Source of the DNA: a virus
Taxonomy: Duplodnaviria > Caudoviricetes
Direction: 5' to 3' (one strand)
DNA length: 52,343 bases
Virus record (IMG/VR): IMGVR_UViG_3300037761_000202
Span: 1 to 52,343 of that record
Of this stretch, positions 1-48,362 are shown one piece after another. Within the stretch, counting starts at the first letter, position 1. The number at the start of each line of letters is the position of its first letter. Made by a program: the position numbers and the translations under genes. The notes below the pieces were generated by a model. It searched no databases. It worked only from the letters and a program-made list of their open reading frames with translations, and had not been told where the DNA came from.

Positions 1-127
1 ACGTGGTAGCCGAGCCAACGGCGGCGCCCGCCGATAGTTACTCCGGCGTACCACTTTGCATTCTCGGCATGCCACCAGACGCCCTTGAATCTCGACGTAC
101 CCCGCGACTTCCGCATGTTCCGAAGAT
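1..127. repeat. 127-bp terminal direct repeat (copy 1; copy 2 at 52217-52343), circular-assembly overlap
   Basis: Positions 1-127 are identical to 52217-52343; the repeat falls inside a CDS; 127 is a common assembler k-mer. Confidence 0.95.
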
Positions 128-389
128 TCTGCTGGCTGGTGGCTGCCCGAAGGTTGCTCCGGCGGTTGTCCAGTCCGTCGCCGTTGCGGTGGTCCACCTG
201 CGGCCAGCCCGTTAGGAAGGTGTGCATGAACTGGGTGGTCCAACGGCCGTCCGGCAACATCATGCGTCGCCGTGCGTACGAGTTGACGCCGTCCGTTTGC
301 GCGGCCCACCGATACTGGCTGACCAGAGCGACGTCGGCGACGTCGACAAGGGCCACCAGCCCACGGCTAAGGGGGATCTGGATCGTCAC
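1..389 (-). CDS. HNH-AP2 homing-type endonuclease, 5' part (continues across the circular junction to 52078; about 175 aa)
   Basis: Manual translation from GTG 389: MTIQIPLSRGLVALVD...MHTFLTGWPQVDHRNGDGLDNRRSNLRAATSQQNLRNMRKSRGTSRFKGVWW; HNH motif DHxNG-x4-N-x2-SNL followed by AP2; GTGA overlap with the RHH stop. Confidence 0.9.
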   Translation of the reverse strand, partial: MTIQIPLSRGLVALVDVADVALVSQYRWAAQTDGVNSYARRRMMLPDGRWTTQFMHTFLTGWPQVDHRNGDGLDNRRSNLRAATSQQNLRNMRKSRGTSRFKGVWWHAENAKWYAGVTIGGRRRWLGYH

Positions 390-571
390 GACTGGCCCTC
401 CTCCCCCGGTGGCTCGCGGCGGTGGCGTGCGACGTAGCGCTCCAGCCCGCGGCGCACCACCTCCGGGACGGTCTCCTTACGCTCGGCAGCGGTGCCCATC
501 GCGGCATGCCACAGCTCGTCGGGTATCCGGATGCTACGACGCGGGTGGCCGTAGCTCGGGTCATTGGCCAT
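386..571 (-). CDS. Ribbon-helix-helix DNA-binding protein
   Basis: MANDPSYGHPRRSIRIPDELWHAAMGTAAERKETVPEVVRRGLERYV; RxIRIPDELW...VVRxxLxxY is the Arc/CopG-like pattern; probably leaderless (TACCCT 6 nt upstream). Confidence 0.8.
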   Translation of the reverse strand: MANDPSYGHPRRSIRIPDELWHAAMGTAAERKETVPEVVRRGLERYVARHRREPPGEEGQS

Positions 572-589
572 ACCGCCAGGGTACGCCAA

Positions 590-671
590 CTGTCACGACA
601 GCGCATCAGCCTAATGTCATGACAGCTCTAACCGAAAGTACTAGCCTCAGACCTTGCAGCTGTCGTGACAG
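590..671. promoter_or_regulatory. Three palindromic operators TGTCRYGACAG (590-601, 614-625, 660-671)
   Basis: CTGTCACGACAG, ATGTCATGACAG, CTGTCGTGACAG; first and third are exact inverted copies and each sits in the spacer of a divergent promoter. Confidence 0.75.
629..646 (+). repeat. Second copy of putative recombinase core site TAACCGAAAGTAnnAGCC (other copy 47351-47368)
   Basis: 12-bp exact AT-rich match plus AGCC (16/18) to the site inside the repressor gene, same orientation. Confidence 0.6.
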
Positions 672-682
672 CCATGTACAGT
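654..682 (+). promoter_or_regulatory. Strong housekeeping-sigma promoter for the rightward early operon
   Basis: TTGCAG-N17-TACAGT with an operator in the spacer. Confidence 0.75.
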
Positions 683-689
683 AGAGATA

Positions 690-1110
690 CAAGCAAGGGA
701 ACACAGAACTTCACAGAGGGTCCCAGGCCAAATGAGAAAAGCGGCCACCGCGGGTAGAACCGCCCCGGGACGAAGGAGGACCTGCAGCCTCCTAGCTGGC
801 GCGGCTGACCCGTCACGCGGCGATGTGCTCCCCGGACTGGCTCAGCGGGAACCGGGGATAGGCCGAGGTCGCCCCCATCAATGAGCCCTACACCCGCGCC
901 AGCTAGGAGGATGCAGGAACGCAGGGTCCTGCAGCCTCCAGCACAGCCAGCGCCCAGCGAACCCGACACCGGGGGAAGCCGCGCGGCACGGCAAGGTCAC
1001 GGTCTGGGCGTGGCCGCTAGTCGTAGCCGCTATACCCGCTCCGCTTGCGGACCATGCGGATGAAAGAGCAGCGTCGCTGGCTGTGCCGGTGGAGGCAGGA
1101 CCGAGAGAGG
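690..1110 (+). ncRNA. Putative long structured leader RNA or ncRNA
   Basis: No credible CDS; 781-804 pairs with 894-917 (23/24); 925-952 pairs with 1075-1102 with two bulges; both 5' arms share CCTGCAGCCTCC. Confidence 0.55.
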
Positions 1111-1121
1111 ACAGGAACGCT

Positions 1122-1346
1122 ATGACCATCTACACCTTGTTTTGCAACAGCGGTTACCTGGGTGCCTTCCGGGAGCGTGAGGCTGCGCAGGCAGCCGCCC
1201 GGGCGAGGGCCGAGTACCGCGACGAGCCGTACCCCGACGAGGCTGTGACCTGGGAGGAGGACGCGACGGGCCGTAAGACCCGCTGGATCATGAGCGTCGG
1301 TGGCAGCTGGAGCGGCTACCACGTCACCGAGGATCAGCTGGGCTGA
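1122..1346 (+). CDS. Hypothetical early protein (74 aa)
   Basis: ATG 1122 after GAGAGGACAGGA; GC3-biased codons. Confidence 0.75.
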   Translation: MTIYTLFCNSGYLGAFREREAAQAAARARAEYRDEPYPDEAVTWEEDATGRKTRWIMSVGGSWSGYHVTEDQLG

Positions 1347-1502
1347 CCGGGCCGGGGTTCCGGGTGCCGGAGCTCCACCGTCGGCCACACTGGCACCCAC
1401 CACCCACCACCCACCACCGAGAGGTTGATCTTGATGCGTACGTACTGGTCCGAGACGCTGGGCCGAGTCACCATCCCCACCGACGACACTGAGGAGACCA
1501 CC

Positions 1503-1925
1503 ATGACCAAGAGCTTCGAGTCCGCCAGCACCCCGATCAGCATGGGCGGCTGGAAGTACAACCCGAACGACGCGCAGGACGTTGCCGACTTCGAGAACTT
1601 CGGCGCCGACGAGCTCCGGGGCCTGGAGCGTAACGACGGCTACGACTTCTCGCAGCACCCGGCTATCGACCCCGGCGAGACCGACTGGGGCATCCTGACC
1701 GCCTACGACACCGGCCGGGAGATCCGCCCGGCGACCTCCGCCGAGCACGCCCGGTCGGTGGCGGCCGGCGAGACCGGCGCCTACGCCGATGACGAGCTGG
1801 GCACCGTGTTCGTGGCCGGCGGGCCGGAGTCGGACGACGCCGACGAGGGCTGCCCCGGGCATGAGTCGCTGGGCGGTGCCCACATGGGCGAGTCGGTCTA
1901 CTGCGATGGCACCTGCCAGGCCTGA
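1503..1925 (+). CDS. Acidic hypothetical protein with C-terminal CxGH...YCDGxC motif
   Basis: RBS GAGGAG before ATG 1503; ends CPGHESLGGAHMGESVYCDGTCQA. Confidence 0.8.
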   Translation: MTKSFESASTPISMGGWKYNPNDAQDVADFENFGADELRGLERNDGYDFSQHPAIDPGETDWGILTAYDTGREIRPATSAEHARSVAAGETGAYADDELGTVFVAGGPESDDADEGCPGHESLGGAHMGESVYCDGTCQA

Positions 1926-2005
1926 CGCTGCCCGGTCCTCACCCGCTCCGGCGGGCGGGGGCCGAGTGGTGGAGCAGACCCACCACCCGACCGAAGGAGT
2001 AGATC

Positions 2006-2473
2006 ATGACCTACCCACTCACACCCACAGCACCCACCATGCCCACCGCACCCATCCAGCCGGCCCAGCCGGTACGGCGTAGGCCTCCCGCGTGGCTGGT
2101 GGTCAGCTTCACCGGCCTGGCTAGCCTGCTCATCGGGATCGGCATCGGCGGCAGCGGCGACGCCACCGCCCCCGCGGCCACCAGCCCGCCGCCCGCAGCG
2201 GTCGTCACCGTCCCGGCCGCGTGCCTGGACGCCCTGGACGACGCTGAGGAGCTGATGGCGATCACCAGCGAGTTCGCCGGCATCGTCGAGGGCCTGCCGA
2301 TGATGGTCTACGAAGCGGCCCAGGCCGGCGCGTCGTACGACACCGCGGCCATCGATGGACTGACTGCACGGCTGGAGGAGATCACGGTGGAGGTGGAGGG
2401 GCTGACCGCGCGGGTCAGCTCGTCGGGGTACCGGGACCAGGCGGCCCAGTGCCGCGACGCGGCCGGCGAGTAG
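2006..2473 (+). CDS. Single-pass membrane protein with Cys-bracketed extracellular helical domain
   Basis: RBS AAGGAG; TM WLVVSFTGLASLLIGIGIGG; VPAACLDALDDAE...AAQC. Confidence 0.8.
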   Translation: MTYPLTPTAPTMPTAPIQPAQPVRRRPPAWLVVSFTGLASLLIGIGIGGSGDATAPAATSPPPAAVVTVPAACLDALDDAEELMAITSEFAGIVEGLPMMVYEAAQAGASYDTAAIDGLTARLEEITVEVEGLTARVSSSGYRDQAAQCRDAAGE

Positions 2474-2568
2474 CCGCTAGGAGCGGTCCCGGGGCGCACC
2501 CTGGGACCGCCCCCCAAATCCGTGGGTGCGCTACGAGAGCAACGAAAGCAGGAAGGGAGGCGCTGACC

Positions 2569-2946
2569 ATGGCGCACAACGAGGACAAGGGGCCGGTGAT
2601 CGTCACGCTGACCTGCGAGGCGCGTGAGGGTACCGGCACCGTGGAGATCAGCCGGGCTGAGTGGGATGCGATGACGCCCGCCCAGCGTCGGGCGAGGGTC
2701 GAAGACGAGGCGGATCAGCACGTCAACGACCAGGGCGGCTACGGCTGGTGCATCGACGACTCGGACGATGATGCGTCGGTAGGCGAGCCAGGCAATCCGG
2801 AGCCGGACCCGCTGCGGGAGCTGGCCGAGTGGCTGGTGTCCCTGGAGGAGCTGCTGCCGGAGGTGACCACGACCGCCGCGGAGACGCGGCTGGCGGAGGC
2901 GACTATCCGCGCTCGGGAGGCGCTGGGCCGGACCGGGGAGAGGTGA
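2569..2946 (+). CDS. Hypothetical acidic protein
   Basis: RBS GGGAGG before ATG 2569; MAHNEDKGPVIVTLTCEA... Confidence 0.75.
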   Translation: MAHNEDKGPVIVTLTCEAREGTGTVEISRAEWDAMTPAQRRARVEDEADQHVNDQGGYGWCIDDSDDDASVGEPGNPEPDPLRELAEWLVSLEELLPEVTTTAAETRLAEATIRAREALGRTGER

Positions 2947-3181
2947 CGGCGACGAACCGGCCCCGACCCGGCTGGTACTCCACCAGCCGCCGCTCCTCCA
3001 GCAGGATCATCGCCCGCTGGATCGTGGACCGGCTGGTTGAGTACAGCTGCATCAGGTCCGCGAACGGCAGCGGGGCACCCGGCGGGTACTGCCCGCGGCG
3101 GATGCGCGCCTGCAGGTCGTCCGCGATCTCGCGGCCGGTCATGCGGATCAAGGTTTGACTCCCGGTCTGGCTACCGACCAT
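2903..3181 (-). CDS. GntR-family winged-helix regulator (DNA-binding domain only)
   Basis: REIADDLQARIRRGQYPPGAPLP...YSTSRSTIQRAMILLEERRLVEYQPGRGRFV; RBS GGGAGG. Confidence 0.9.
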   Translation of the reverse strand: MVGSQTGSQTLIRMTGREIADDLQARIRRGQYPPGAPLPFADLMQLYSTSRSTIQRAMILLEERRLVEYQPGRGRFVAVTSPRSGPAPPERG

Positions 3182-3216
3182 CGTCGCGACACCTCCCATC
3201 CGGTGCAAGCCCTGGG

Positions 3217-3246
3217 TTGACTGAGCGCACTCAGTGCACCTACCCT
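3217..3246 (+). promoter_or_regulatory. Rightward promoter overlapped by palindrome ACTGAG-CGCA-CTCAGT (probable GntR operator)
   Basis: TTGACT-N18-TACCCT; palindrome 3220-3235; divergent from the GntR gene. Confidence 0.6.
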
Positions 3247-3414
3247 AACGGCAGGTACCCCCCGGTCTGGCGATTGGCGGGGTGGCCGCCCGGCGTCGGG
3301 CCGGGGCCACGTGCAAGGGGCACCGCCCCCGGCCCGGCACCGGCGGGCCGCAGCCGTCCCGGCCGCCCTGTCCGACGGGTGGGCGGCCGGGACAGACCCC
3401 GACGGGAGGTGGCA

Positions 3415-3582
3415 GTGGGCGAGCAGGACGAACCTCGGGGCCGCGACGACTGGCCTACGGGCTGGATCGTGACCGCGCTGCATCACGGTCAGAGTGTGTG
3501 GCCGGAGCTGACCCGCCGATGGCGGGAGCAGCGGCCGGTCAACGGCGTGGACATTGCTCGCGATGTGCCGGAGGGGGGTTAG
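3415..3582 (+). CDS. Small Trp-rich hypothetical protein (55 aa)
   Basis: GGGAGG then GTG 3415; followed by a hairpin. Confidence 0.55.
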   Translation: MGEQDEPRGRDDWPTGWIVTALHHGQSVWPELTRRWREQRPVNGVDIARDVPEGG

Positions 3583-3607
3583 GCGGGCTGACCCTGGGCA
3601 CACGGAG

Positions 3608-3645
3608 GGGAGCCCTCCCGGGCCACCAAGTCCGGGAGGGCTCCC
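3608..3645. terminator. GC hairpin between convergent genes
   Basis: GGGAGCCCTCCCGG...CCGGGAGGGCTCCC 14-bp stem, no U-tract (common in actinomycetes). Confidence 0.6.
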
Positions 3646-3698
3646 ACTCACCCACCACCCGCCGCGCTCCGCCAGCGCAGCCGAGTTATGCCATTCGG

Positions 3699-3914
3699 TC
3701 AGGGGCGGAAATCACCCTTGTCCGCGTTCGGCGGCTTCGGGTCCTCCGACTCGTTGGTGTTGCCGCCCTTGTTGACGCAGATCCACCCGCCGTCGGACGG
3801 GTTCGCGGTCGCTTCCTGCCCGGGTGGGCAGGTGATCGGGTCTGCGTGCGCCGGGCTCGCGCCGGCGCCGACACCGGCGGCGACCAGCGCCGCGATGATG
3901 ATCAGCTTTCGCAT
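3699..3914 (-). CDS. Small secreted protein with two Cys
   Basis: Signal peptide MRKLIIIAALVAAGVGAGASPAHA-D; mature region TCPPG...GWICV. Confidence 0.8.
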   Translation of the reverse strand: MRKLIIIAALVAAGVGAGASPAHADPITCPPGQEATANPSDGGWICVNKGGNTNESEDPKPPNADKGDFRP

Positions 3915-3936
3915 GGTGCTCTCCTCTACCTCGGTC

Positions 3937-4173
3937 CTATTGTCTCGCGGCCCGCCGACGCTTGCGCCGGTAGGCCAGCCAGAAGTGAATCGGAACCCAC
4001 AGAACGAGAGCGCCGATGGCAGCGAAGGCGGCCTCCATCGGGACCGCGCCTACGATCTCGGTGGTCCATGGCCGAGTCGCCGGGCTAGCGTCGCACGCGG
4101 CCAGGATCTCCATGCCGATGACCAGCCCGGTCAGGCCTAAGAACGCGATCCGCCAACGGGTGGCCGCGCTCAT
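3937..4173 (-). CDS. Two-TM membrane protein with basic C-tail (holin-like)
   Basis: Two hydrophobic segments, ends YRRKRRRAARQ; TGATG coupling to the upstream gene. Confidence 0.7.
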   Translation of the reverse strand: MSAATRWRIAFLGLTGLVIGMEILAACDASPATRPWTTEIVGAVPMEAAFAAIGALVLWVPIHFWLAYRRKRRRAARQ

Positions 4174-4487
4174 CAGCGTTCCCGCGTGAACGTCACTTCG
4201 CACCAGCCGTCAGCGGTCGAGACAGCCTCGAACTTCGGCCAGCCGTGCTTCATCCCGATCAGCTCCAGCTGGGGCACCAGCGCGGCATGCACCATCGGAT
4301 ACCGCAGTGTGACGGCCGGGCCGGACGCCGCCACCTGTAGGGCCTGGTCGATCGCGCCAGCTTGCCAGCCGGCCGCGAACGCCGAATCGTCGTACGGGCC
4401 GCCCTTGGACTGGCAGACCACGAACGGCATGACCAGCTCCATGCCGTCGCCGTCGTCGTTGGGCTGGTAGTCGGTCGGCTCGCTCAC
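4173..4487 (-). CDS. Hypothetical protein
   Basis: GTGA-coupled; LVMPFVVCQSKGGPYDDSAFAAGW. Confidence 0.75.
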   Translation of the reverse strand: MSEPTDYQPNDDGDGMELVMPFVVCQSKGGPYDDSAFAAGWQAGAIDQALQVAASGPAVTLRYPMVHAALVPQLELIGMKHGWPKFEAVSTADGWCEVTFTRER

Positions 4488-4810
4488 CGCGCCGGCTCCA
4501 GCTCGCGGGCGCCGGTCAGCTCCGGCTCCACGCCACTCTCGTCGATCACGCACGCCTCATCTGCCCAGACCGTGCCGGGTAGGCCGCACACGCCCCAGTG
4601 CCGGTGTTCGGCCATGAACCCGCCGGCCGCCCGGGCGATGGGTGCGTGCCGGTCGCACGAGGCCAGCGAGACGTCGCCCCACGAGGCGGACATGGTCCGC
4701 ACGTGCACGGTGGCCGGCTCGCCACACGGCGGGCCGTGCCCGGTCGGGCCGTGGTACTGGCAGACGCCGCGGTAGTCGGTGCTGGCCGGGCCGACGCCGG
4801 GCTCGCTCAC
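4484..4810 (-). CDS. Cys/His-rich hypothetical protein
   Basis: GTGA-coupled to the holin; CQYHG...CGEPATVH...SCDRH...VC. Confidence 0.7.
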   Translation of the reverse strand: MSEPGVGPASTDYRGVCQYHGPTGHGPPCGEPATVHVRTMSASWGDVSLASCDRHAPIARAAGGFMAEHRHWGVCGLPGTVWADEACVIDESGVEPELTGARELEPAR

Positions 4811-5052
4811 CGCTGGGCCTCCTGACGCGCCGCCCGGTCCGCCATGCCCCGCAGCTCGTGCGCGGTCAACGACGGTAGCGGCGCCGGCTGCGGGATGCCG
4901 TACACCGCGCCGTAGATGCCGACCACCGCGGACGCGACCAGCACCCACTCCAGCGGCGTCACGGTACCGTCGGCCAGCGCGGTGCCCAGCGCGCCCAGCC
5001 CGGCGAGCACCCCGCCGGTGATCGCCTTGGCCTGCTCCCGTGGTGTGGCCAT
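4807..5052 (-). CDS. Holin
   Basis: KAITGGVLAGLGALGTALADGTVTPLEWVLVASAVVGIYGAVYGIP, actinophage holin pattern, in the lysis cassette. Confidence 0.75.
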   Translation of the reverse strand: MATPREQAKAITGGVLAGLGALGTALADGTVTPLEWVLVASAVVGIYGAVYGIPQPAPLPSLTAHELRGMADRAARQEAQR

Positions 5053-5066
5053 CGTCCTCGTCTCCC

Positions 5067-5423
5067 TCAGTCGCATCGTAGGCTCGGCGGCTCCGGCACC
5101 GGGTTCGCGGCCAGCGCAGCCCGGTAGGCGTCACTGGCGTCCAGGTAGGCGGCCAGCGCCGCCGCAAACTCTGCCTCATCCGCCGCCGCGACGGCCCGGA
5201 CCAGCCGGTCCAGCGCGTCGGCCCGCACCCCGGCCAGCTGACCGAGCAGGGAGGTCCGCGCCACGCTGGCGTCCCCCCACGCCTGGGTGCACGCGATGAT
5301 CCGGTCCTGCTCCCTGGCCAGCTGCTCCAGCCGCAGGAAGCCGGGCACGAACACGACCGCCAGCATGAGCAGCATGACCGCGTACGGGTGACCGCTCAGC
5401 CAGCGGACAATCCGGCGGATCAC
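5067..5423 (-). CDS. N-terminal TM plus helical lysis-associated protein
   Basis: TM then Ala-rich helix, ends PVPEPPSLRCD. Confidence 0.7.
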   Translation of the reverse strand: MIRRIVRWLSGHPYAVMLLMLAVVFVPGFLRLEQLAREQDRIIACTQAWGDASVARTSLLGQLAGVRADALDRLVRAVAAADEAEFAAALAAYLDASDAYRAALAANPVPEPPSLRCD

Positions 5424-5427
5424 GGCG

Positions 5428-5517
5428 TCAGCTCGCCAACCACAGCATGAACGACACCACCGCCGCCGCGGTCAGGTAGATGATCGTGACCGGGTACCGC
5501 TTAGTCAGCGTTCCCAT
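5428..5517 (-). CDS. 29-aa single-TM peptide (not in ORF track)
   Basis: MGTLTKRYPVTIIYLTAAAVVSFMLWLAS; GAGGAGG upstream; fills the gap in the lysis operon. Confidence 0.6.
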   Translation of the reverse strand: MGTLTKRYPVTIIYLTAAAVVSFMLWLAS

Positions 5518-5707
5518 TGCGTCGCCTCCTCGCCTCATCGACCCTCATAACCACGGGTGAGAGCAGGATCGCGCCGAGGAAGCTCAGCACAGCCGCCCGG
5601 GCGCCGCCGAGCGTGATCTCCCACATGGTCAGCGCCAGCGCCACGCTCACCACGGCGGTGTCCCGGACCGGCCGGCTCACCCACCGGTCCTCGACGCCTG
5701 GGGTCAT
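5501..5707 (-). CDS. Two-TM membrane protein (holin/antiholin candidate)
   Basis: ATGA overlap with the endolysin stop; two hydrophobic helices, basic tail. Confidence 0.7.
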   Translation of the reverse strand: MTPGVEDRWVSRPVRDTAVVSVALALTMWEITLGGARAAVLSFLGAILLSPVVMRVDEARRRRNGNAD

Positions 5708-6738
5708 GCCGCCAGCCGCCGGGCGAGCTCGTCCACCACCGCGGCCGCGTCCCGCTCGCCGCTGGTGGCCTGCCGCACCAGCTCCGCCAACTCCGCCCGC
5801 TCCGCCGCCGCCGCCGCCTCGGCGAGCTCCCGCGCCGTGTCCATCTCCGCCAGCCGGATGCTGACCTCCAGGTGGTGCTGGTCGATCCTGGCCAACACGG
5901 CCAGCGTGTCGCTGCCGGTGACCGCGGCCAGCACCGCCTCCAGCAGCTCCCGGTCGCGGATCTGACCCGGTGCCGAGCCGTCGTGGACCTGCCGCAGCAG
6001 CGTCCCGTAGGAGGCGCCGGCGGTCGGGTTCTCCCGCTGCCACACGTCGGCCGCGGTCCTGGCGCGGCCGGCCGGCGCCGAGCCCATGGCCGCGTAGCCG
6101 AGCAGCCCGGCGGCGACCCGCGACCAGTTGTCGGGCAGGGTGTCGTCGGCGAGGGCGGTGATCTGCGCGCCGCTTCCGTCGCGGTTCAGGCTCTCGGTCC
6201 ACATGCTGTCTCCCTCGATCAGCTCGGCGACCCGGCCGCGGAAGGCGGCCATGCCGAATGTCGGGTCGCTCTTGTCTCCGGGCTGGTGCTCCTTGTGCCC
6301 GACCAGCCGGCCGGCCAGCCAGCCCATCCGGGTGCAGATCGCCGCCCAGCCGCGGGCGTACGCCTCGTACTGCACAGCCGGCCATGGCTCGGTCCGGTTG
6401 TCGTTGTTGGCTTCCACCCCGAGCAGGTTGGTGTTGCCGAGCCCGGCGGCGGGGCCGGCCCAACCGGTCAGGGCGGTGTTGCACCGGCCCGACGCGAGCA
6501 CATGCCACCGGCCCGTGCGGTCGACGCAGCAGTTGGCGATCGGCCCGGCCAGGGTGGCGTGGCCGTCGCGGACGATCCGCACCTGGTCCTCATCGGCCTG
6601 GCTGGCTGGTGCGGCGGTGGCGTGGACGATCCCGTACTGGGGCGCCCACGGCTCAAACCCGCGCGTCTGCCACCCGATGTGAGGCACCACCTGCAGGCCG
6701 GCGTCGGCGAGCACGTCGACCAGCCACAGAGCACGCAT
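5704..6738 (-). CDS. Endolysin, N-acetylmuramoyl-L-alanine amidase (Amidase_2)
   Basis: GWQTRG...IVHATA...GVEANN...GHKEH...KSDP Zn-amidase motifs, directly after the tail genes. Confidence 0.9.
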   Translation of the reverse strand: MRALWLVDVLADAGLQVVPHIGWQTRGFEPWAPQYGIVHATAAPASQADEDQVRIVRDGHATLAGPIANCCVDRTGRWHVLASGRCNTALTGWAGPAAGLGNTNLLGVEANNDNRTEPWPAVQYEAYARGWAAICTRMGWLAGRLVGHKEHQPGDKSDPTFGMAAFRGRVAELIEGDSMWTESLNRDGSGAQITALADDTLPDNWSRVAAGLLGYAAMGSAPAGRARTAADVWQRENPTAGASYGTLLRQVHDGSAPGQIRDRELLEAVLAAVTGSDTLAVLARIDQHHLEVSIRLAEMDTARELAEAAAAAERAELAELVRQATSGERDAAAVVDELARRLAA

Positions 6739-6751
6739 CGCCCTACCCCCG

Positions 6752-7192
6752 TCATCCGTAGGCGTACTGGCACCACATCAGCGCCGGTGTGAGCGCGGCC
6801 GCGTCGAGCCGGCAGGAGCCCGTCCCGCCGTTGCGTTCGGCGGTGACCACAAACGTCTGGTTGCCGGTGGAGGCCGCGGTCCAGAACGCCATCAGCGGCA
6901 GCGGGCCGTACCCGAAGCTGGACGTGCCGCCGCCGATCTGCTGCCCGAGCTGCATCGTGGTCCCGGACACGTCGGTCGGCTTCAACCGGCACACGATCTG
7001 GTCGGTCGCCACGTCGCTGCCCCACCGGGCCATGCACCACACCTGGTAGGTCCGGCCGGCCACCAGCGGCCGGTCCGCCAGCGTCATCACGACCACTTCG
7101 GTGGTGAACGCTGAGCTGTCCGAGGTGACGATCGTCGGGGTGCCGATCATCTCCCCGGGGATGCGTCCGTCCACATAGAGTGTGCCGGCCAT
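6752..7192 (-). CDS. Minor tail protein
   Basis: Last gene of the tail module, beta-rich. Confidence 0.65.
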   Translation of the reverse strand: MAGTLYVDGRIPGEMIGTPTIVTSDSSAFTTEVVVMTLADRPLVAGRTYQVWCMARWGSDVATDQIVCRLKPTDVSGTTMQLGQQIGGGTSSFGYGPLPLMAFWTAASTGNQTFVVTAERNGGTGSCRLDAAALTPALMWCQYAYG

Positions 7193-26507: not shown

Positions 26508-26717
26508 ATGACCGGTAGGCCGGGAGACGGGTGCAAAGACCCGCGCGCTATGCATCCGCACTGGTGCGGTTTTTGTGGTGCCGAGCTGTTGTTTTCTTCG
26601 GTAGCTTGCCAGCGCTTTATCGCCGTTCCCCCGTGTCCCCGGTGTTCCGGACATGACTGGCGGACCGAGGTCGACGAGCTGACCGCTCCGGACTACCACG
26701 AAGCCGCCCCTCAGTAG
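26508..26717 (+). CDS. Antisense zinc-ribbon protein
   Basis: HWCGFCG...PCPRCSGHDW; TACACT 6 nt before ATG 26508. Confidence 0.6.
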   Translation: MTGRPGDGCKDPRAMHPHWCGFCGAELLFSSVACQRFIAVPPCPRCSGHDWRTEVDELTAPDYHEAAPQ

Positions 26718-29398
26718 AAGCTCTGCAGCACGTCGTAATTCGCCTCGGCCACCAGCTCACCCCACGCGCCGTGAAGCCACCGCGCCAACGTCAACGACAC
26801 AATCGGGCCGATCTGACCACCCGACACCCGCGGCGACCACGCCACAGTGTCAGCACCCTGCCGCACCTGACCCACCGCCGCCGCATCGTCCAACGGCTTG
26901 GACGGCCGCACCCGCAACGAACACTGCTTAACCGCGTCGATCATCTGCCCGCACGCCGCCGCCATCGTCATCGGAGTCATCACCGCCACATCACCCCGAC
27001 ACGGCTCCTCCGCCACCTCCGGCGCCGACAGGCCGACATCCTCCAGGTCATCCCGCAGACTCTCGTAGGTGCCACGGCCCAACGCCACACCGATCGGGTC
27101 CAACGCCTCCCGCAGCTCCGCCAACCTGGCCGGCAGCCAGTCCACACCCGGCCGGTAATCCACCAGATGCCCATGACCCAACCCGTCCGCCCGCAGCCCG
27201 AACACCGCCACCGACCCGAACTCCCGCAGCGGATCCACATCCGCGCCCAGCGCCACATCACCCACCCGGGCCGAACCCGGGTCCTGCAACGCCCGCCACT
27301 GAGCCTCCGTGATCACACCCTGCAGCATCCGCGACGTCTTCCGGTTGCCGTACGCCCGCGCGAACTCCGCCGGCTCCATCGCCGCCCGCTCAGACCGGAT
27401 CGCGTCCATCGTCACCGTGTGCCGCCACCGCTGCCCCGCCGGAGCGCACCGGCACGGCGGATCGGGGCACAGCGCCGGCATGAACCCGAAGTACGACGCC
27501 TCATCCGCCGGGTCCCACCCGTCCGGTGCCGACCACTCGAAATAGGCCACGCCCGAGCCGACATCAGCCACCGTCGCCGCGCGGCCCGCCTCCACCTTCC
27601 GGTTCAGGATCACACTCGCGTCCGTGCCAGCCGTTGAGCAAACCAGCAACTGGGCATCCGGAACCGTGATCATCGCCGGCCGCAGACCCTGCTCCCGCCG
27701 CTCATCCGCGTCATGCCAGATCTCATCCATCACCGCCTGGTGGATGCTCTTGGAGTGGCCCGAGCTCGCCGAGGTCGACAACAGCCGGATCAACGACCCG
27801 GTGGCCCAACGGACCGACTCGTTACCCATCCCCTCGTTGATCTCCAGGCGCTTACCTTTGCGGGAGACCAGCCGGGCGATCGCCGAGTTGCGGATCAGCG
27901 GAAACAGCTCGTCCAACCACTTGTCTCGGGCGTCCTTACCCGACTGGGCGGTGAACACCGACCGCTGCGGATGCGACCAGCGCGCCGAGTTGCACCGGTT
28001 GATCTGCCAGGACAGGAACAGGGTCGTGTTGTGGGTCGGGACCAAGTCCCGGCCGGCCAGGAACAGCCCGTCAGGCGAGTCAACCTTGATGCACCGGACC
28101 GGCACCGACTCCACCGGCTCAATCCGGGCGATGCTCAGCGTGGCCCGGCCCTTCCCGCCGTCAAGCGCCTTCACCCTCGACGCCTTACGCGGAAGCCTGA
28201 AGACCCGGAACGGGTCTGCCAGCGTCGGGGTGAACTGGACCCGGTACTTGGGACCGCAGTCCCGGCCGTTCAATGTGGCACGGGCCATCCGCATCGTGGC
28301 CCGCCAGCCCAGCGACCGGGCCAGGAACAGTGCCGCTTCGGCCAGCCGCTGGTTCGTGGAACAAAACTCAGCCTGGCCGCGAGTGGGCTCAACCGTGCCA
28401 TCGGTGTCCATGAGCCCCTGCAAAAGGGCCTCGCGCTGGTCAGTCCCAGCGGTCAGGTACAGGTCGGGCACGTGCTTGTTTCCGAACACCCCGAGCACCC
28501 GCAACGCCGCGGGGAACGTACGGCTATTACGGCCCGGACCCGGAGCGGAGGTGATTCCCACGGATCGGGTGTTCCCCTTGACCCCACCGGGAGGGTTGGT
28601 GGGGATGAACCCGGCCGCTGCGATCGCCTCGCACCAGTGAGCCACATCGGAGACGTGGGACGTCAGCATGGCACTAGTCGAACTGCCGTCACCGAGCCAA
28701 GCGCCCAGCAAGTACGGGTCGATCGGCAGGTAGACGTCAGCGCTCTTCAGCGGCTCTTGGATGGGGAGCACGAATCGGTACTCATTCGTGGCGTACCGCT
28801 TGCCGCCCGTGACAGACGTCCGGCGGCCGGTTGAGTACCGGGAAGTCCCATAGTCCAGCATCTGACGCGTGGTCAGGACCCGAGTCTCGAACCACCTCCT
28901 GGCCGCCCCCCGAGGCCCGAGCGACCTGCTAGAACGCTTATCGACAACGGTCCAAAGGTGATCCGCATCCGCCACCACGGAACGGCCATCCGTCGTGGTT
29001 ACCCGGTAGCACCGATGCCCCAGCATCACCGAACTGACGAACGTTGCTTCGACGGAGTGCCCGGCAGGATGGAACACCTGATCGCCAACACGCAGGGCGC
29101 CCATCGTCGACCAGCCACGGTTTGCCGTGAGGATCGGCGTAGCCACATCGAGCGCTTTCCCCTGCTGCCTAGGTACTGTGACGACCACCTCACGGTAGGC
29201 CGGCAGCCCGGTCGCCGGGTCGACCTCGCAGCCGATGTCAGCTACGTGGCGCTGCCACGGCATGAACGGCTGCGCGAGCCGGTCGGCAACCGCCGCCAGC
29301 TCGTGGCCGAACGTCGCCCGCTCAGGCCGGCGGAGCGTCGAGAACCGGGGCGGACAACTCAGCGATGAGGCGGTCTGCCTCGCCAGAATCGCCGTCAT
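26711..29398 (-). CDS. terL: Terminase large subunit containing an intein
   Basis: FMPWQ, Walker A VPRQQGK/TT split by the intein, Walker B AVMDE, STAG, ALGADV nuclease motif. Confidence 0.95.
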   Translation of the reverse strand: MTAILARQTASSLSCPPRFSTLRRPERATFGHELAAVADRLAQPFMPWQRHVADIGCEVDPATGLPAYREVVVTVPRQQGKALDVATPILTANRGWSTMGALRVGDQVFHPAGHSVEATFVSSVMLGHRCYRVTTTDGRSVVADADHLWTVVDKRSSRSLGPRGAARRWFETRVLTTRQMLDYGTSRYSTGRRTSVTGGKRYATNEYRFVLPIQEPLKSADVYLPIDPYLLGAWLGDGSSTSAMLTSHVSDVAHWCEAIAAAGFIPTNPPGGVKGNTRSVGITSAPGPGRNSRTFPAALRVLGVFGNKHVPDLYLTAGTDQREALLQGLMDTDGTVEPTRGQAEFCSTNQRLAEAALFLARSLGWRATMRMARATLNGRDCGPKYRVQFTPTLADPFRVFRLPRKASRVKALDGGKGRATLSIARIEPVESVPVRCIKVDSPDGLFLAGRDLVPTHNTTLFLSWQINRCNSARWSHPQRSVFTAQSGKDARDKWLDELFPLIRNSAIARLVSRKGKRLEINEGMGNESVRWATGSLIRLLSTSASSGHSKSIHQAVMDEIWHDADERREQGLRPAMITVPDAQLLVCSTAGTDASVILNRKVEAGRAATVADVGSGVAYFEWSAPDGWDPADEASYFGFMPALCPDPPCRCAPAGQRWRHTVTMDAIRSERAAMEPAEFARAYGNRKTSRMLQGVITEAQWRALQDPGSARVGDVALGADVDPLREFGSVAVFGLRADGLGHGHLVDYRPGVDWLPARLAELREALDPIGVALGRGTYESLRDDLEDVGLSAPEVAEEPCRGDVAVMTPMTMAAACGQMIDAVKQCSLRVRPSKPLDDAAAVGQVRQGADTVAWSPRVSGGQIGPIVSLTLARWLHGAWGELVAEANYDVLQSFY
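28028..29155 (-). mobile_element. Class-3 intein with LAGLIDADG homing endonuclease (376 aa)
   Basis: Starts ALDVATPI, ends VPTHN/T; WCT triad (DHLW, VRCIKV, PTHN); LGAWLGDG and LQGLMDTDG. Confidence 0.92.
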
Positions 29399-29619: not shown

Positions 29620-29860
29620 TAGCGACATCTAGATGGTTAGCGTCACTCTGGTCTATGTCCGCTTTGTTCCCAGAACGGTACTGGGAAGGTGGCCATTCCA
29701 AGATCGGGAACAAAGCGGACATAGACGATGCTGTATGTAAATCGCGAGGGATGACAGTGTCACACCTCGGCCAAACATCTAAAAAAGTCGATGCCTTCCC
29801 GAGCTGGATTGATGGTTGTCTGTCTTTAGTGGACCTACCCAGTGTCCACTGCGAACACTA
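29620..29860. other. Probable cos/packaging region
   Basis: AT-rich gap between HNH and terS; 21-bp perfect inverted repeat 29651-29671/29706-29726; palindrome 29745-29769; A6 tract. Confidence 0.6.
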
Positions 29861-46930: not shown

Positions 46931-47058
46931 AGCTAAAGAGTTTGGCACTGCCAAGCATGCTTGGCAAGGTGAACCGCGTCCCCCGTTCGGGTAGTTTGGT
47001 GTAGCCAAACTGCCTAGGGACCATTGCCAAACTTCTTGCAAGTGGCAATACTCTTGGC
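46931..47058. promoter_or_regulatory. Lysis/lysogeny switch: divergent leaderless promoters and TTGGCA/TGCCAA operators
   Basis: Leftward TTGCCA-N17-CAAACT; rightward TTGCCA-N17-AATACT; palindrome TGCCAAGCATGCTTGGCA 46949-46966; AGTTTGG-N5-CCAAACT 46993-47011. Confidence 0.8.
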
Positions 47059-47499
47059 ATGGAGGAAGTGACAGCTATACGGCACGAGATCCCGCCGGAC
47101 CAGTTCCGCTACCGCGTGCTTCTCGCCCGTCTCCACGCCGGCCTGACCACTCGCGAAGCGGCCGACCGCTGCGGCACCAACTCGGCTAGCTGGTCAAACT
47201 GGGAGCGCGGCACCATGCCGCGCGACCTGCTGAACACCGTAAACAAGATCAGCGACGGACTCGGGATCGACCGGGATTGGCTGCTGTTCGGTGGCCAGCT
47301 GGCAACCGAGCGCCGACACCCCCGCGACCTTAATCATCGTTCCGGGCTGGTAACCGAAAGTATGAGCCCCCGCGCCAACACCCACCCCGCCGGCTCGGCC
47401 GTACGGCCCCCGCCAGCATCCACCACCCGGACAACCCGCCGACCCACAGCCACCACCGCAACCGGCCGCACGCGCAGACCCGCATGGCAGCACGGATGA
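47059..47499 (+). CDS. Immunity repressor (XRE HTH) with long disordered C-tail
   Basis: RLHAGLTTREAADRCGTNSASWSNWERG..P...ISDGLGIDRDWLLFG. Confidence 0.9.
   Translation: MEEVTAIRHEIPPDQFRYRVLLARLHAGLTTREAADRCGTNSASWSNWERGTMPRDLLNTVNKISDGLGIDRDWLLFGGQLATERRHPRDLNHRSGLVTESMSPRANTHPAGSAVRPPPASTTRTTRRPTATTATGRTRRPAWQHG
47344..47369 (+). other. Candidate attP core inside the repressor gene
   Basis: GGGCTGGTA-ACCGAAAG-TATGAGCCC: 9-bp imperfect inverted arms around an 8-bp asymmetric spacer, just after the HTH. Confidence 0.55.
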
Positions 47500-47567
47500 C
47501 ACCCGCCCGGGTGGCCACCACACCCCGGGTGCGACCCGCCCCACCCGGCCCGGCCCAGCGTCCGAGC

Positions 47568-48362
47568 ATGGACGACACCCCCCACATCAACGCCTGGCTG
47601 GACCACCTCGCCGCCGTCGGCCACCCCGCCACCACCCGCGACACGTACCGCTGCGTGCTCACCCGCGCGTCCCGGGAGTTGCCCCACGGCCTTGGCCAGG
47701 CGCTGCGGGAGGAGCTGGTCGCCTGGCTGGGCACCCACCGGTCCCTGGCCACCCGCGGCGCCTACCGGGCCGCGCTGACCTCCTTCTACCGCTGGGTCAT
47801 CAGCACGCGGCGACTCAAGGGCGCCAACCCGGCCGCCGACCTGCCGCGGATAAAGCGGCCGCGCAGGCTGCCCCGTCCGGTCGAGCATCACGAGCTCGCG
47901 CTGATCCTGGACCGGGCGGCCGAGCCGGTCAGGACGTGGGCGGTGATCGCCGCCTACGCGGGCGCGCGGTGTTGCGAGATCGCCCGGCTGGACCGGGCCG
48001 ACGTGAGCGAGCGGTCGCTGAGGTTGCACGGCAAGGGTGATGAGGAGCGGTCCGTGCCGGCGCACCCGCTGGTGTGGGCGGCGCTGCGTGACCTGCCGGC
48101 CGGGCTGGTGGCCGGCGGGCAGAACCCGTCGCAGGTGTCCCACCGGGGCAGTGCGCAGTTCCGCAAGCTCGGCGTGGCCGGCGGGTTGCACCGGCTGAGG
48201 CACTGGCACGCGACACACGCACTGGCGCACATCGGCAACCCGAGGGTGGTTCAGGAGCTGCTGGGCCACAAGTCGATCACGACCACGGCGGTGTACACCG
48301 CGGTCAGCGATGCGGCGATGCGCGCGGCGGTGCTGGCGCTGCCGCCGCCGGGTGGCGGCTGA
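47568..48362 (+). CDS. int: Tyrosine integrase/recombinase lacking the arm-binding domain (alternative start 47496)
   Basis: AYAGARCCEI (R), HGKG (K), HRLRH, LLGH, AVYT; about 264 aa. Confidence 0.92.
   Translation: MDDTPHINAWLDHLAAVGHPATTRDTYRCVLTRASRELPHGLGQALREELVAWLGTHRSLATRGAYRAALTSFYRWVISTRRLKGANPAADLPRIKRPRRLPRPVEHHELALILDRAAEPVRTWAVIAAYAGARCCEIARLDRADVSERSLRLHGKGDEERSVPAHPLVWAALRDLPAGLVAGGQNPSQVSHRGSAQFRKLGVAGGLHRLRHWHATHALAHIGNPRVVQELLGHKSITTTAVYTAVSDAAMRAAVLALPPPGGG

Follow-up and report, generated by a model that had tools for sequence, protein, structure and literature searches.

In phage lambda, the leader of the N transcript carries nutL and then an RNase III hairpin, T7 has early RNase III sites, and the put RNA of HK022 is a cis-acting RNA of two hairpins just behind an early promoter. 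We describe here a leader at positions 688 to 1121 of a phage genome of 52,343 bp (IMG/VR record IMGVR_UViG_3300037761_000202, positions 1 to 52,343; this whole stretch is called the window below). The closest known case, which we regard as analogous in function and not as a homologue, is the non-coding Pleft RNA of the cluster A mycobacteriophages L5 and D29. According to the report on L5, D29, and StarStuff (PMC5712189), a non-coding stretch of approximately 500 bp that separates the early promoter Pleft from gene 89 is transcribed, and the resulting RNA is the most abundant phage RNA, stable, processed to 100-500 nt with a common 5' end, and toxic when cloned; it has no canonical terminator and no known function.

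The leader of the window shares with L5 the general design of a non-coding stretch of about 430-500 nt that extends from a repressor-controlled early promoter to the first gene of a temperate actinophage, and it is strongly folded in both cases (z = -5.2 for L5 and -3.05 here). There is, however, no homology, as R1, a covariance model of the small first domain of the leader, scored no higher than 7.6 bits (E 0.22) against the right end of L5. The L5 leader has stoperator sites and lacks the 25-bp closing helices, whereas the present family is modular and shuffled. By analogy, the leader appears to be a new, modular form of the structured early-leader RNAs of actinophages. The early non-coding RNAs of L5 and D29 are very abundant and their role is unexplained, and the present family may offer a handle on it.

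The order of promoter, small hairpin domain, long double-stranded hairpin, and ribosome-binding site is also that of the lambda N leader, and the helices are long enough for RNase III, as at the T7 sites. On the other hand, there is no likeness to boxA or boxB, and the large conserved interiors of the modules would be unneeded for a mere processing site. Like put, the small domain has two hairpins just behind the promoter, but it is closed by a third stem and occurs in one copy per genome, and no similarity to put was detected.

The leader is non-coding, structured, modular, and conserved, and it lies behind a promoter motif. It is a real and conserved element, neither an artefact nor a gene, and it belongs to no known RNA family. 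Reading from the sequence, we tentatively favor the interpretation that positions ~688-1121 are the non-coding 5' part of a transcript from a promoter controlled by an Arc-like repressor, and thus a modular structured leader RNA with helices for RNase III or for stability, to which we give somewhat less than an even chance.

Architecture and predicted fold

All parts of the leader are given for the plus strand. It begins with an A/C-rich segment (688-717), in which a start-proximal AyAAGmAAG is similar in most relatives. A small three-stem domain (SD, 718-773) follows, defined by its consensus fold and pair counts, with the stems P1 (720-724/767-771), P2 (726-729/743-746), and P3 (750-753/760-763); it closes with GTyCC...GGGAy, similar to the ends of the modules. 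Module 1 (type A, 781-917) is closed by a helix of 781-807 with 891-917 around an interior of 83 nt with nested hairpins, and module 2 (type B, 925-1102) by a bulged helix of 925-952 with 1075-1102 around an interior of 122 nt. Two further pairings can be drawn, namely a pre-hairpin (774-793) between the linker AGGAGG (774-779) and CCTCCT (788-793) of the first 5' arm, with a CCTG word in its loop, and an alternative hairpin of 906-918 with 927-939 in the inverted repeat at the junction between the modules (906-939). An unpaired purine-rich linker (1103-1121) with the ribosome-binding site GAGAGAGGA (1103-1111) leads to the first gene.

In the closing helix of module 1, 25 of 27 nt are paired (93% complementary), and in that of module 2, 24 of 28 (86%). 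These two helices rank first and second among the 19 inverted repeats of the whole record. The best ungapped inverted repeat in 690-1121 had 25 matches, compared to a mean of 10.4 and a maximum of 17 in 100 dinucleotide shuffles. In the minimum free energy (MFE) fold of 690-1121, the small domain and both closing helices are formed. Its energy of -203.7 kcal/mol (z = -3.05) was reached by none of 100 shuffles, and the pair probabilities of the closing helices are above 0.99; the minus strand gave z = -1.88. The two long stems of a first-pass annotation, which had been made from the sequence alone, were thus confirmed far beyond shuffled expectation, the first one extended to 781-807/891-917. 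That each stem encloses more than 85 nt applies to the second module (122 nt) but not to the first (83 nt). The smaller domain proposed at 720-771 is part of the MFE fold, and the 12-mer noticed in both 5' arms proved to belong to a shared 15-mer, GGwCCTGCAGCCTCC, at 778 and 925.

Related leaders and exchange of modules

Relatives were found in viral and metagenome contigs by means of neighboring proteins and words of the region, which yielded 15 more contigs and thus 16 leaders in total. All 16 have one orientation, and each lies directly behind a TTGnnn-16/17-TAnnnT motif. Every leader consists of a first domain and one or two modules, of which there are at least six types. In 14 of the 16 leaders, the first domain is SD (52 nt, nearly invariant). 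Twelve of these 14 copies do not differ over a stretch of 24 nt (741-764), and all 14 begin 14-39 nt after the -10 hexamer. While SD is nearly invariant, the operator-like repeats and promoter sequences are unrelated between leader groups.

The arrangement SD-A-B is present in the window, in L022, and in L016, which is cut by the contig end. L023 and L024 have the arrangement X-A-B, in which an unrelated purine-rich first domain (L023 2568-2657, L024 2566-2655) replaces SD in front of modules A and B. SD-A is found in L019, L146, and L148, SD-B in L005, L012, and L021, SD-C-D in L013, L014, L017, and L020, and SD-C'-E in L018. There are eight copies of type A, and seven complete copies of type B plus one cut by a contig end. 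All 25 complete modules end with CAGG; 21 start with CCTG, three with CCTA, and one with CTTG, and their closing helices comprise 20-31 pairs. R1 detected one strong copy of SD in the window and in each of the four complete SD-carrying relatives, and no copy in L004 and L006-L011.

In contigs from other sediment and soil samples, SD and module A were covered far more deeply than their flanks and had differing upstream sequences, which fits cassettes shared by many phages. When public contigs from four DNA runs were compared with 600-1400, the known variant classes were found again, and in one contig the 3' arm of a module ends with TAGG. Another public contig has 645 other letters between the end of module 1 and gene 1 (window 917/1128), in place of module 2. 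Pattern searches returned other candidates that were dismissed: GCGGCCACCGCGGN{4,8}CCGCC gave 120 stretches in genome contigs, none of which was leader-like by blastn, and GGGGAAGCCGCGCRG gave 119 stretches in viral contigs, of which the similar ones were the relatives already known. Four of six metagenome matches to a word of the small domain were due to chance, and the match in L155 was a chance 18-mer inside a coding region.

Clear domain borders, a near-invariant core, and shuffled modules provide natural deletion and swap variants with which the function of the leader can be tested, be it in processing, antitermination, or counter-defence.

Conservation and covariation

In stem P1 of SD, a G-C pair is replaced by A-U in three copies and a C-G pair by U-G in 5 of 12 distinct rows, whereas P2 and P3 never vary and are therefore uninformative either way; the covariation score of SD was reached by 4 of 500 shuffles. 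In the closing helix of type A, two pairs differ at both positions, with A-U instead of C-G in three copies and G-C instead of A-U in one. Here, 99.7% of the cells pair, compared to 36-49% with the partner slid, and the score was reached by 1 of 500 shuffles. The outermost seven pairs of type A cannot be aligned in one column register and were read by hand; an A-U pair and a G/A mismatch of the window correspond to G-C and U-A with a bulged A in L019.

For type B, the interior is common to the window lineage and that of L005, as in CAGCGAACC-hairpin-GGGGAAGCCGCGC, and an inner hairpin has changed from CCCG/CGGG to CCGC/GCGG between the lineages. The closing helix differs completely between them in its inner half, which is still complementary. 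In type C, one side of an A-U pair that is present in L013 is lost in L014, and both sides are lost in L020. Between lineages, the interiors of type A are 93-95% identical and the arms 85-89%, and the interiors are therefore not mere spacers. The collection of homologues and the covariation check, which the first-pass annotation had suggested, thus indicated that the stems are kept by compensatory changes among relatives. The data sets are small (4-14 copies per module), and most paired columns do not vary; the structural case is the sum of these observations and not a formal covariation test.

Coding potential and known RNA families

Open reading frames (ORFs) of 30, 50, and 60 codons on the plus strand and of 113 codons on the minus strand lie in the leader region, and none of them is conserved. 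Close relatives are separated by indels of 1 nt and 2 nt inside module 1, and the G+C content by codon phase is flat in the leader (0.74/0.65/0.64), compared to 0.60/0.55/0.85 to 0.63/0.52/0.93 in the downstream genes. This agrees with the initial view that no credible coding sequence follows the promoter. A small protein or leader peptide, encoded, for example, at 732-884 or 881-1063, could be argued from the existence of the 50- and 60-codon ORFs and from module 1, which taken alone has a G+C content of 0.84 in one codon phase. That phase, however, contains two stop codons (793 and 859), 4 of the 14 SD copies have the ATG at 732 and the other 10 lack it, and the indels between close relatives shift the frame, which leaves a peptide next to no probability.

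With Rfam 15, a search of 500-1500 at E up to 10 gave three weak matches, none of which was inside 690-1121, the whole window gave no match at the gathering score, and the leaders of L005, L013, L018, and L019 gave none at E up to 1. ARAGORN found no tRNA in the leader, and a search of the genome for a retron reverse transcriptase (PF00078) gave no match. A hepatitis delta virus-like ribozyme was considered because of a likeness of the 5' arm of module 1 to the ribozyme core, and it was rejected: Rfam gave no match, the partner of the first stem is missing, and this segment forms one arm of a helix in which changes are compensatory. A literature search, which did not extend to the candidate table of PMC10651486, found no description of the leader family. 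The family adds structured RNA motifs that are absent from Rfam.

Promoter, operators, and genome setting

The leader is located in a divergent control region, in which a repressor gene points to the left and a promoter-like site to the right. The repressor gene (386-568, minus strand) encodes an Arc-like (ribbon-helix-helix) protein according to PHROGs (phrog_6506, E 5.7e-11) and had no match in Pfam. Three operator-like 12-mers, TGTCAyGACAGC, lie at 591-602, 615-626, and 661-672 and belong to direct- and inverted-repeat families; the third is situated between the -35 and -10 hexamers. In the genome, their core TGTCRYGACA has exact copies at these three sites only, and the other three of six matches carry a mismatch. 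The promoter-like sequence (653-681, plus strand) was read by inspection as TTGCAG (653-658), a spacer of 17 nt, and TACAGT (676-681), from which an RNA start at ~688-690 is predicted. A scan of 300-1600 for E. coli-type (sigma-70) consensus promoters called no site, so that the strong promoter of the first-pass annotation is better described as a promoter-like motif; its reading as a promoter is supported by the same layout directly before all 16 leaders. A CCGAAAGTAyGA-like word is found at 636-648, about 8-10 nt upstream of the -35 hexamer, as in most leader promoters, and again at 47351-47363, behind a repressor-like ORF at 47.35 kb. Read on the other strand, this word may represent the -10 region of the leftward promoter.

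The leader is followed by the first gene of the operon (1122-1346, plus strand; 74 aa; G+C by codon phase 0.60/0.55/0.85), which has relatives at 86-96% identity and no family in Pfam or PHROGs. The virus record is complete, with direct terminal repeats and 70% G+C, and includes a portal gene, a DnaB-like helicase gene, an HNH gene, a ParB-like gene, and a tyrosine integrase gene (47484-48359). The integrase and the phage gene content indicate a temperate actinophage. Among isolated phages, the nearest relatives of the helicase are those of mycobacterial prophages (37-40% identity), and no DNA similarity to 1-6000 was found, so that the phage is without close cultured relatives. The whole leader gave three marginal matches of ~30 nt each in 401 sampled Actinomycetota genomes, and R1 gave no match in five genomes of a host search. 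A second control region (46980-47480) adjoins the integrase gene, with repeated TTGGC/GCCAA words upstream and a plus-strand ORF from 47051 that was judged by eye to be helix-turn-helix repressor-like.

A CRISPR repeat-like hairpin in module 1

Module 1 contains a hairpin (825-865, plus strand) with a 7-bp stem and a 16-nt loop. Its flanks, GTGCTCCCCG (825-834) and CGGGGAT (853-859), equal those of actinobacterial type I-E CRISPR repeats; ATAGGCCG follows the hairpin at 858-865, and ATGAGCCC lies at 881-888. The CRISPR-like words are invariant in all eight type-A copies. The pattern GTGCTCCCCG-N(4-10)-CGGGGAT occurred in 14 of the 401 genomes and a reversed control pattern in two. In three of the 14, there were 24, 56, and 32 copies in the form of 29-nt CRISPR repeats, whereas the other 11 had a single copy. 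The array period was 61-62 bp in the two arrays resolved by Tandem Repeats Finder, the listed copies of the third were 61 bp apart, and a Cas6e-family gene was present on the same contig in all three genomes. The 8 nt after the hairpin match the repeat handle at five of eight positions, and the handle word of one array is ATGAGCCC, which in the leader lies 23 nt further on, at 881-888. A loop-to-strand pairing between GGCTCA (~843) and TGAGCC (882-887) is also predicted.

Proposed role of the leader and alternative explanations

As a modular leader RNA, the transcript would fold into three independent units in a row, SD and then two closed modules. These units are cassettes, and related phages keep SD and combine it with one or two modules behind unrelated promoters. 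The long helices (25-28 bp) may be cut by the double-strand-specific RNase III of the host or may block exonucleases, after which the modules would accumulate as stable small RNAs and the mRNA from gene 1 onward would be separated from the leader. A host or phage partner could then bind to the conserved interiors and to the invariant SD, which would be the working surfaces, and the dense folding would shield a long untranslated RNA from Rho. Excision of the modules by RNase III is plausible with respect to substrate length, for which at least 20 nearly continuous bp are needed; the helices have 25/27 and 24/28 pairs here, and 20-31 pairs across all leaders examined. A nut- or put-like role for SD is likewise plausible by analogy, as its position fits.

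Several observations weigh against a modular leader RNA. No RNase III gene was found in the phage genome. L004 shares its operators and promoter with the window but has a leader of just 38 nt, and the leader is therefore dispensable for the promoter; L006 also lacks these elements. Most paired columns are invariant within a module type, in the type-A closing helix 17 of 19, so that covariation within types is thin, and much of the change between types could reflect the swapping of whole hairpins and not stepwise compensation. In the closing helices, G-U pairs (~6 independent) are no commoner than A-C (~5), and these helices alone therefore tell neither RNA from DNA nor the strand. Finally, the host search with the portal protein gave matches of only 30-35% identity, in 4 of the 401 genomes.

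As an alternative, SD could work like nut or put, as the first-pass annotation had also considered, with RNA polymerase or a factor of the phage or host as its target in cis, so that transcription would run past both the long hairpins and those between the genes of the operon. We judge such processive antitermination unlikely. For this role speak the constant distance range of SD from the -10 hexamer behind many different immunity-type promoters, a promoter-proximal position being the layout of nut and put sites, the two hairpins in a closed junction with their invariant 24 nt, and the G+C-rich hairpins after the first genes in relatives. However, SD is present once per genome in all four complete SD-carrying relatives searched, matches nothing known in Rfam, and is exchanged for an unrelated domain in L023 and L024, which retain modules A and B. 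Moreover, the closing helices end into AAC or ACC without a U-tract, and mycobacterial RNA polymerase reportedly needs a U-tract for intrinsic termination. The missing U-tracts also bear on an attenuator or riboswitch, in which mutually exclusive folds, the junction hairpin or the pre-hairpin against the closing helices, would gate the reading of the operon, and which we consider very improbable. The complementarity noted in the first-pass annotation is real (12/13 for 906-918/927-939), but forcing the junction hairpin raised the energy from -204.4 to -191.9 kcal/mol (+12.5) at a pair probability of ~0, and the two modules, which can exchange their outer 12 bp, then rearranged to form a four-way junction. 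The pre-hairpin (6-7 bp with CCTG in the loop) was predicted in eight of nine first modules examined, the MFE fold of the first module of L020 having a different pairing, and it follows the arm sequence across module groups (GGAGG/CCTCC-like in types A and B, CGAAGC/GCTTCG in C and C'). Forcing it in the window gave -189.6 kcal/mol (+14.8), again with a pair probability of ~0, and in terms of these models it can only be, at most, a transient folding intermediate or a post-cleavage hairpin, not a switch. The alternatives displace just 6-13 of ~25 pairs, a plus-strand scan of 300-1600 found no terminator-like site, the ribosome-binding site was unpaired in every fold computed, and Rfam gave no riboswitch family. 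The shared 12-mer is confined to A-B leaders and absent from single-module leaders (6/16) and from C-D or C'-E leaders (5/16), so that the exclusive folds are not conserved and an attenuator based on this word is unlikely.

The remaining explanations concern DNA and host defence. Like Correia elements, which are bacterial miniature inverted-repeat transposable elements (MITEs), the modules are units of 110-180 bp with ~25-bp inverted ends, would be part of a transcript, and have hairpins that would be RNase III substrates. A MITE, a recombination site, or a replication or packaging signal that is merely located in the leader would account for terminal inverted repeats with conserved ends, for a copy number that varies between relatives down to none in one of them, and for a mismatch pattern that does not favor RNA. 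We nevertheless regard a DNA-level element as very doubtful: target-site duplications are missing at 781/917 and at 925/1102, the genome has no second copy, the type-A core was found in viral contigs only at the same locus in five other stretches plus one chance match in a coding region, and the 401 genomes contain nothing beyond the three marginal matches. Unlike MITEs, the modules keep their place, order, and orientation behind the promoter, and their interiors are more conserved than their arms. The U-G pairs that occur in P1 of SD and in the interior of type A agree with an RNA of the plus strand, and in one public contig a G-U pair replaces G-C at a helix base. Together with the fixed position and orientation behind promoters and the lower z-score of the plus strand, the U-G pairs favor plus-strand RNA, although not decisively. 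Such an RNA could be directed against host defence, the modules being decoys made first in infection, with module 1 mimicking a type I-E repeat to tie up Cas6e or Cascade, a role that we consider rather improbable. It would agree with the arrays on contigs that carry Cas6e-family genes, the rarity of the reversed pattern, and the invariance of the repeat-like positions, and cassette shuffling and variable first genes resemble anti-defence loci. Solitary repeat units, the RNA anti-CRISPRs (Racr), are found directly behind strong phage promoters and near variable small genes (PMC10651486). The hairpin of module 1 is likewise a single copy behind a promoter, outside an array and without cas genes. 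The likeness is, however, partial (10 + 7 nt, 17 of 29 repeat positions, five of eight in the handle), does not extend to whole-length identity or fold, with a loop of 16 nt instead of 4-5 nt in a hairpin enclosed by a 137-nt module, and was noticed post hoc. None of 47 spacers from the arrays matches this phage family, the other modules showed no repeat-like hairpin, and a pattern for the small domain gave single chance matches and no arrays. It is similarly improbable that the whole leader consists of RNA anti-defence cassettes that can be exchanged for one another, each module being a decoy for a different host factor and the GUCCUG...CAGGAC helix a common handle; if true, this handle for processing or stabilization would let cassettes swap between phages.

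Additional observations

Intergenic cassettes recur before operon genes in the window (1388-1433 and 1926-2005) and in L013, L014, L018, and L020, for example, CCACACTGrCAGAC...ACCGAAGGAG-N-ATG and TGACGCTGCCCGGTCC...GGAGCAGACCCACCACC, and a CCACCCA run is located at 1395-1421 of the window. Presumably, these cassettes are comparable to the start-associated sequences of cluster K mycobacteriophages, which they recall.

Elsewhere in the window, a perfect 21-bp inverted repeat (GTCTATGTCCGCTTTGTTCCC and its complement, with 34 nt between the arms) lies at 29651-29726 and is unusually A+T-rich for this genome. An ORF of 894 aa (26711-29395, minus strand) has weak homing-endonuclease and LAGLIDADG matches at residues 313-386, which suggests an intein inside a large phage protein. 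In the 100-kb relative L019, an array of 27 tRNA matches that reach or exceed the gathering score of the Rfam tRNA family lies at 3070-6995, and its strand is the opposite of that of the leader.

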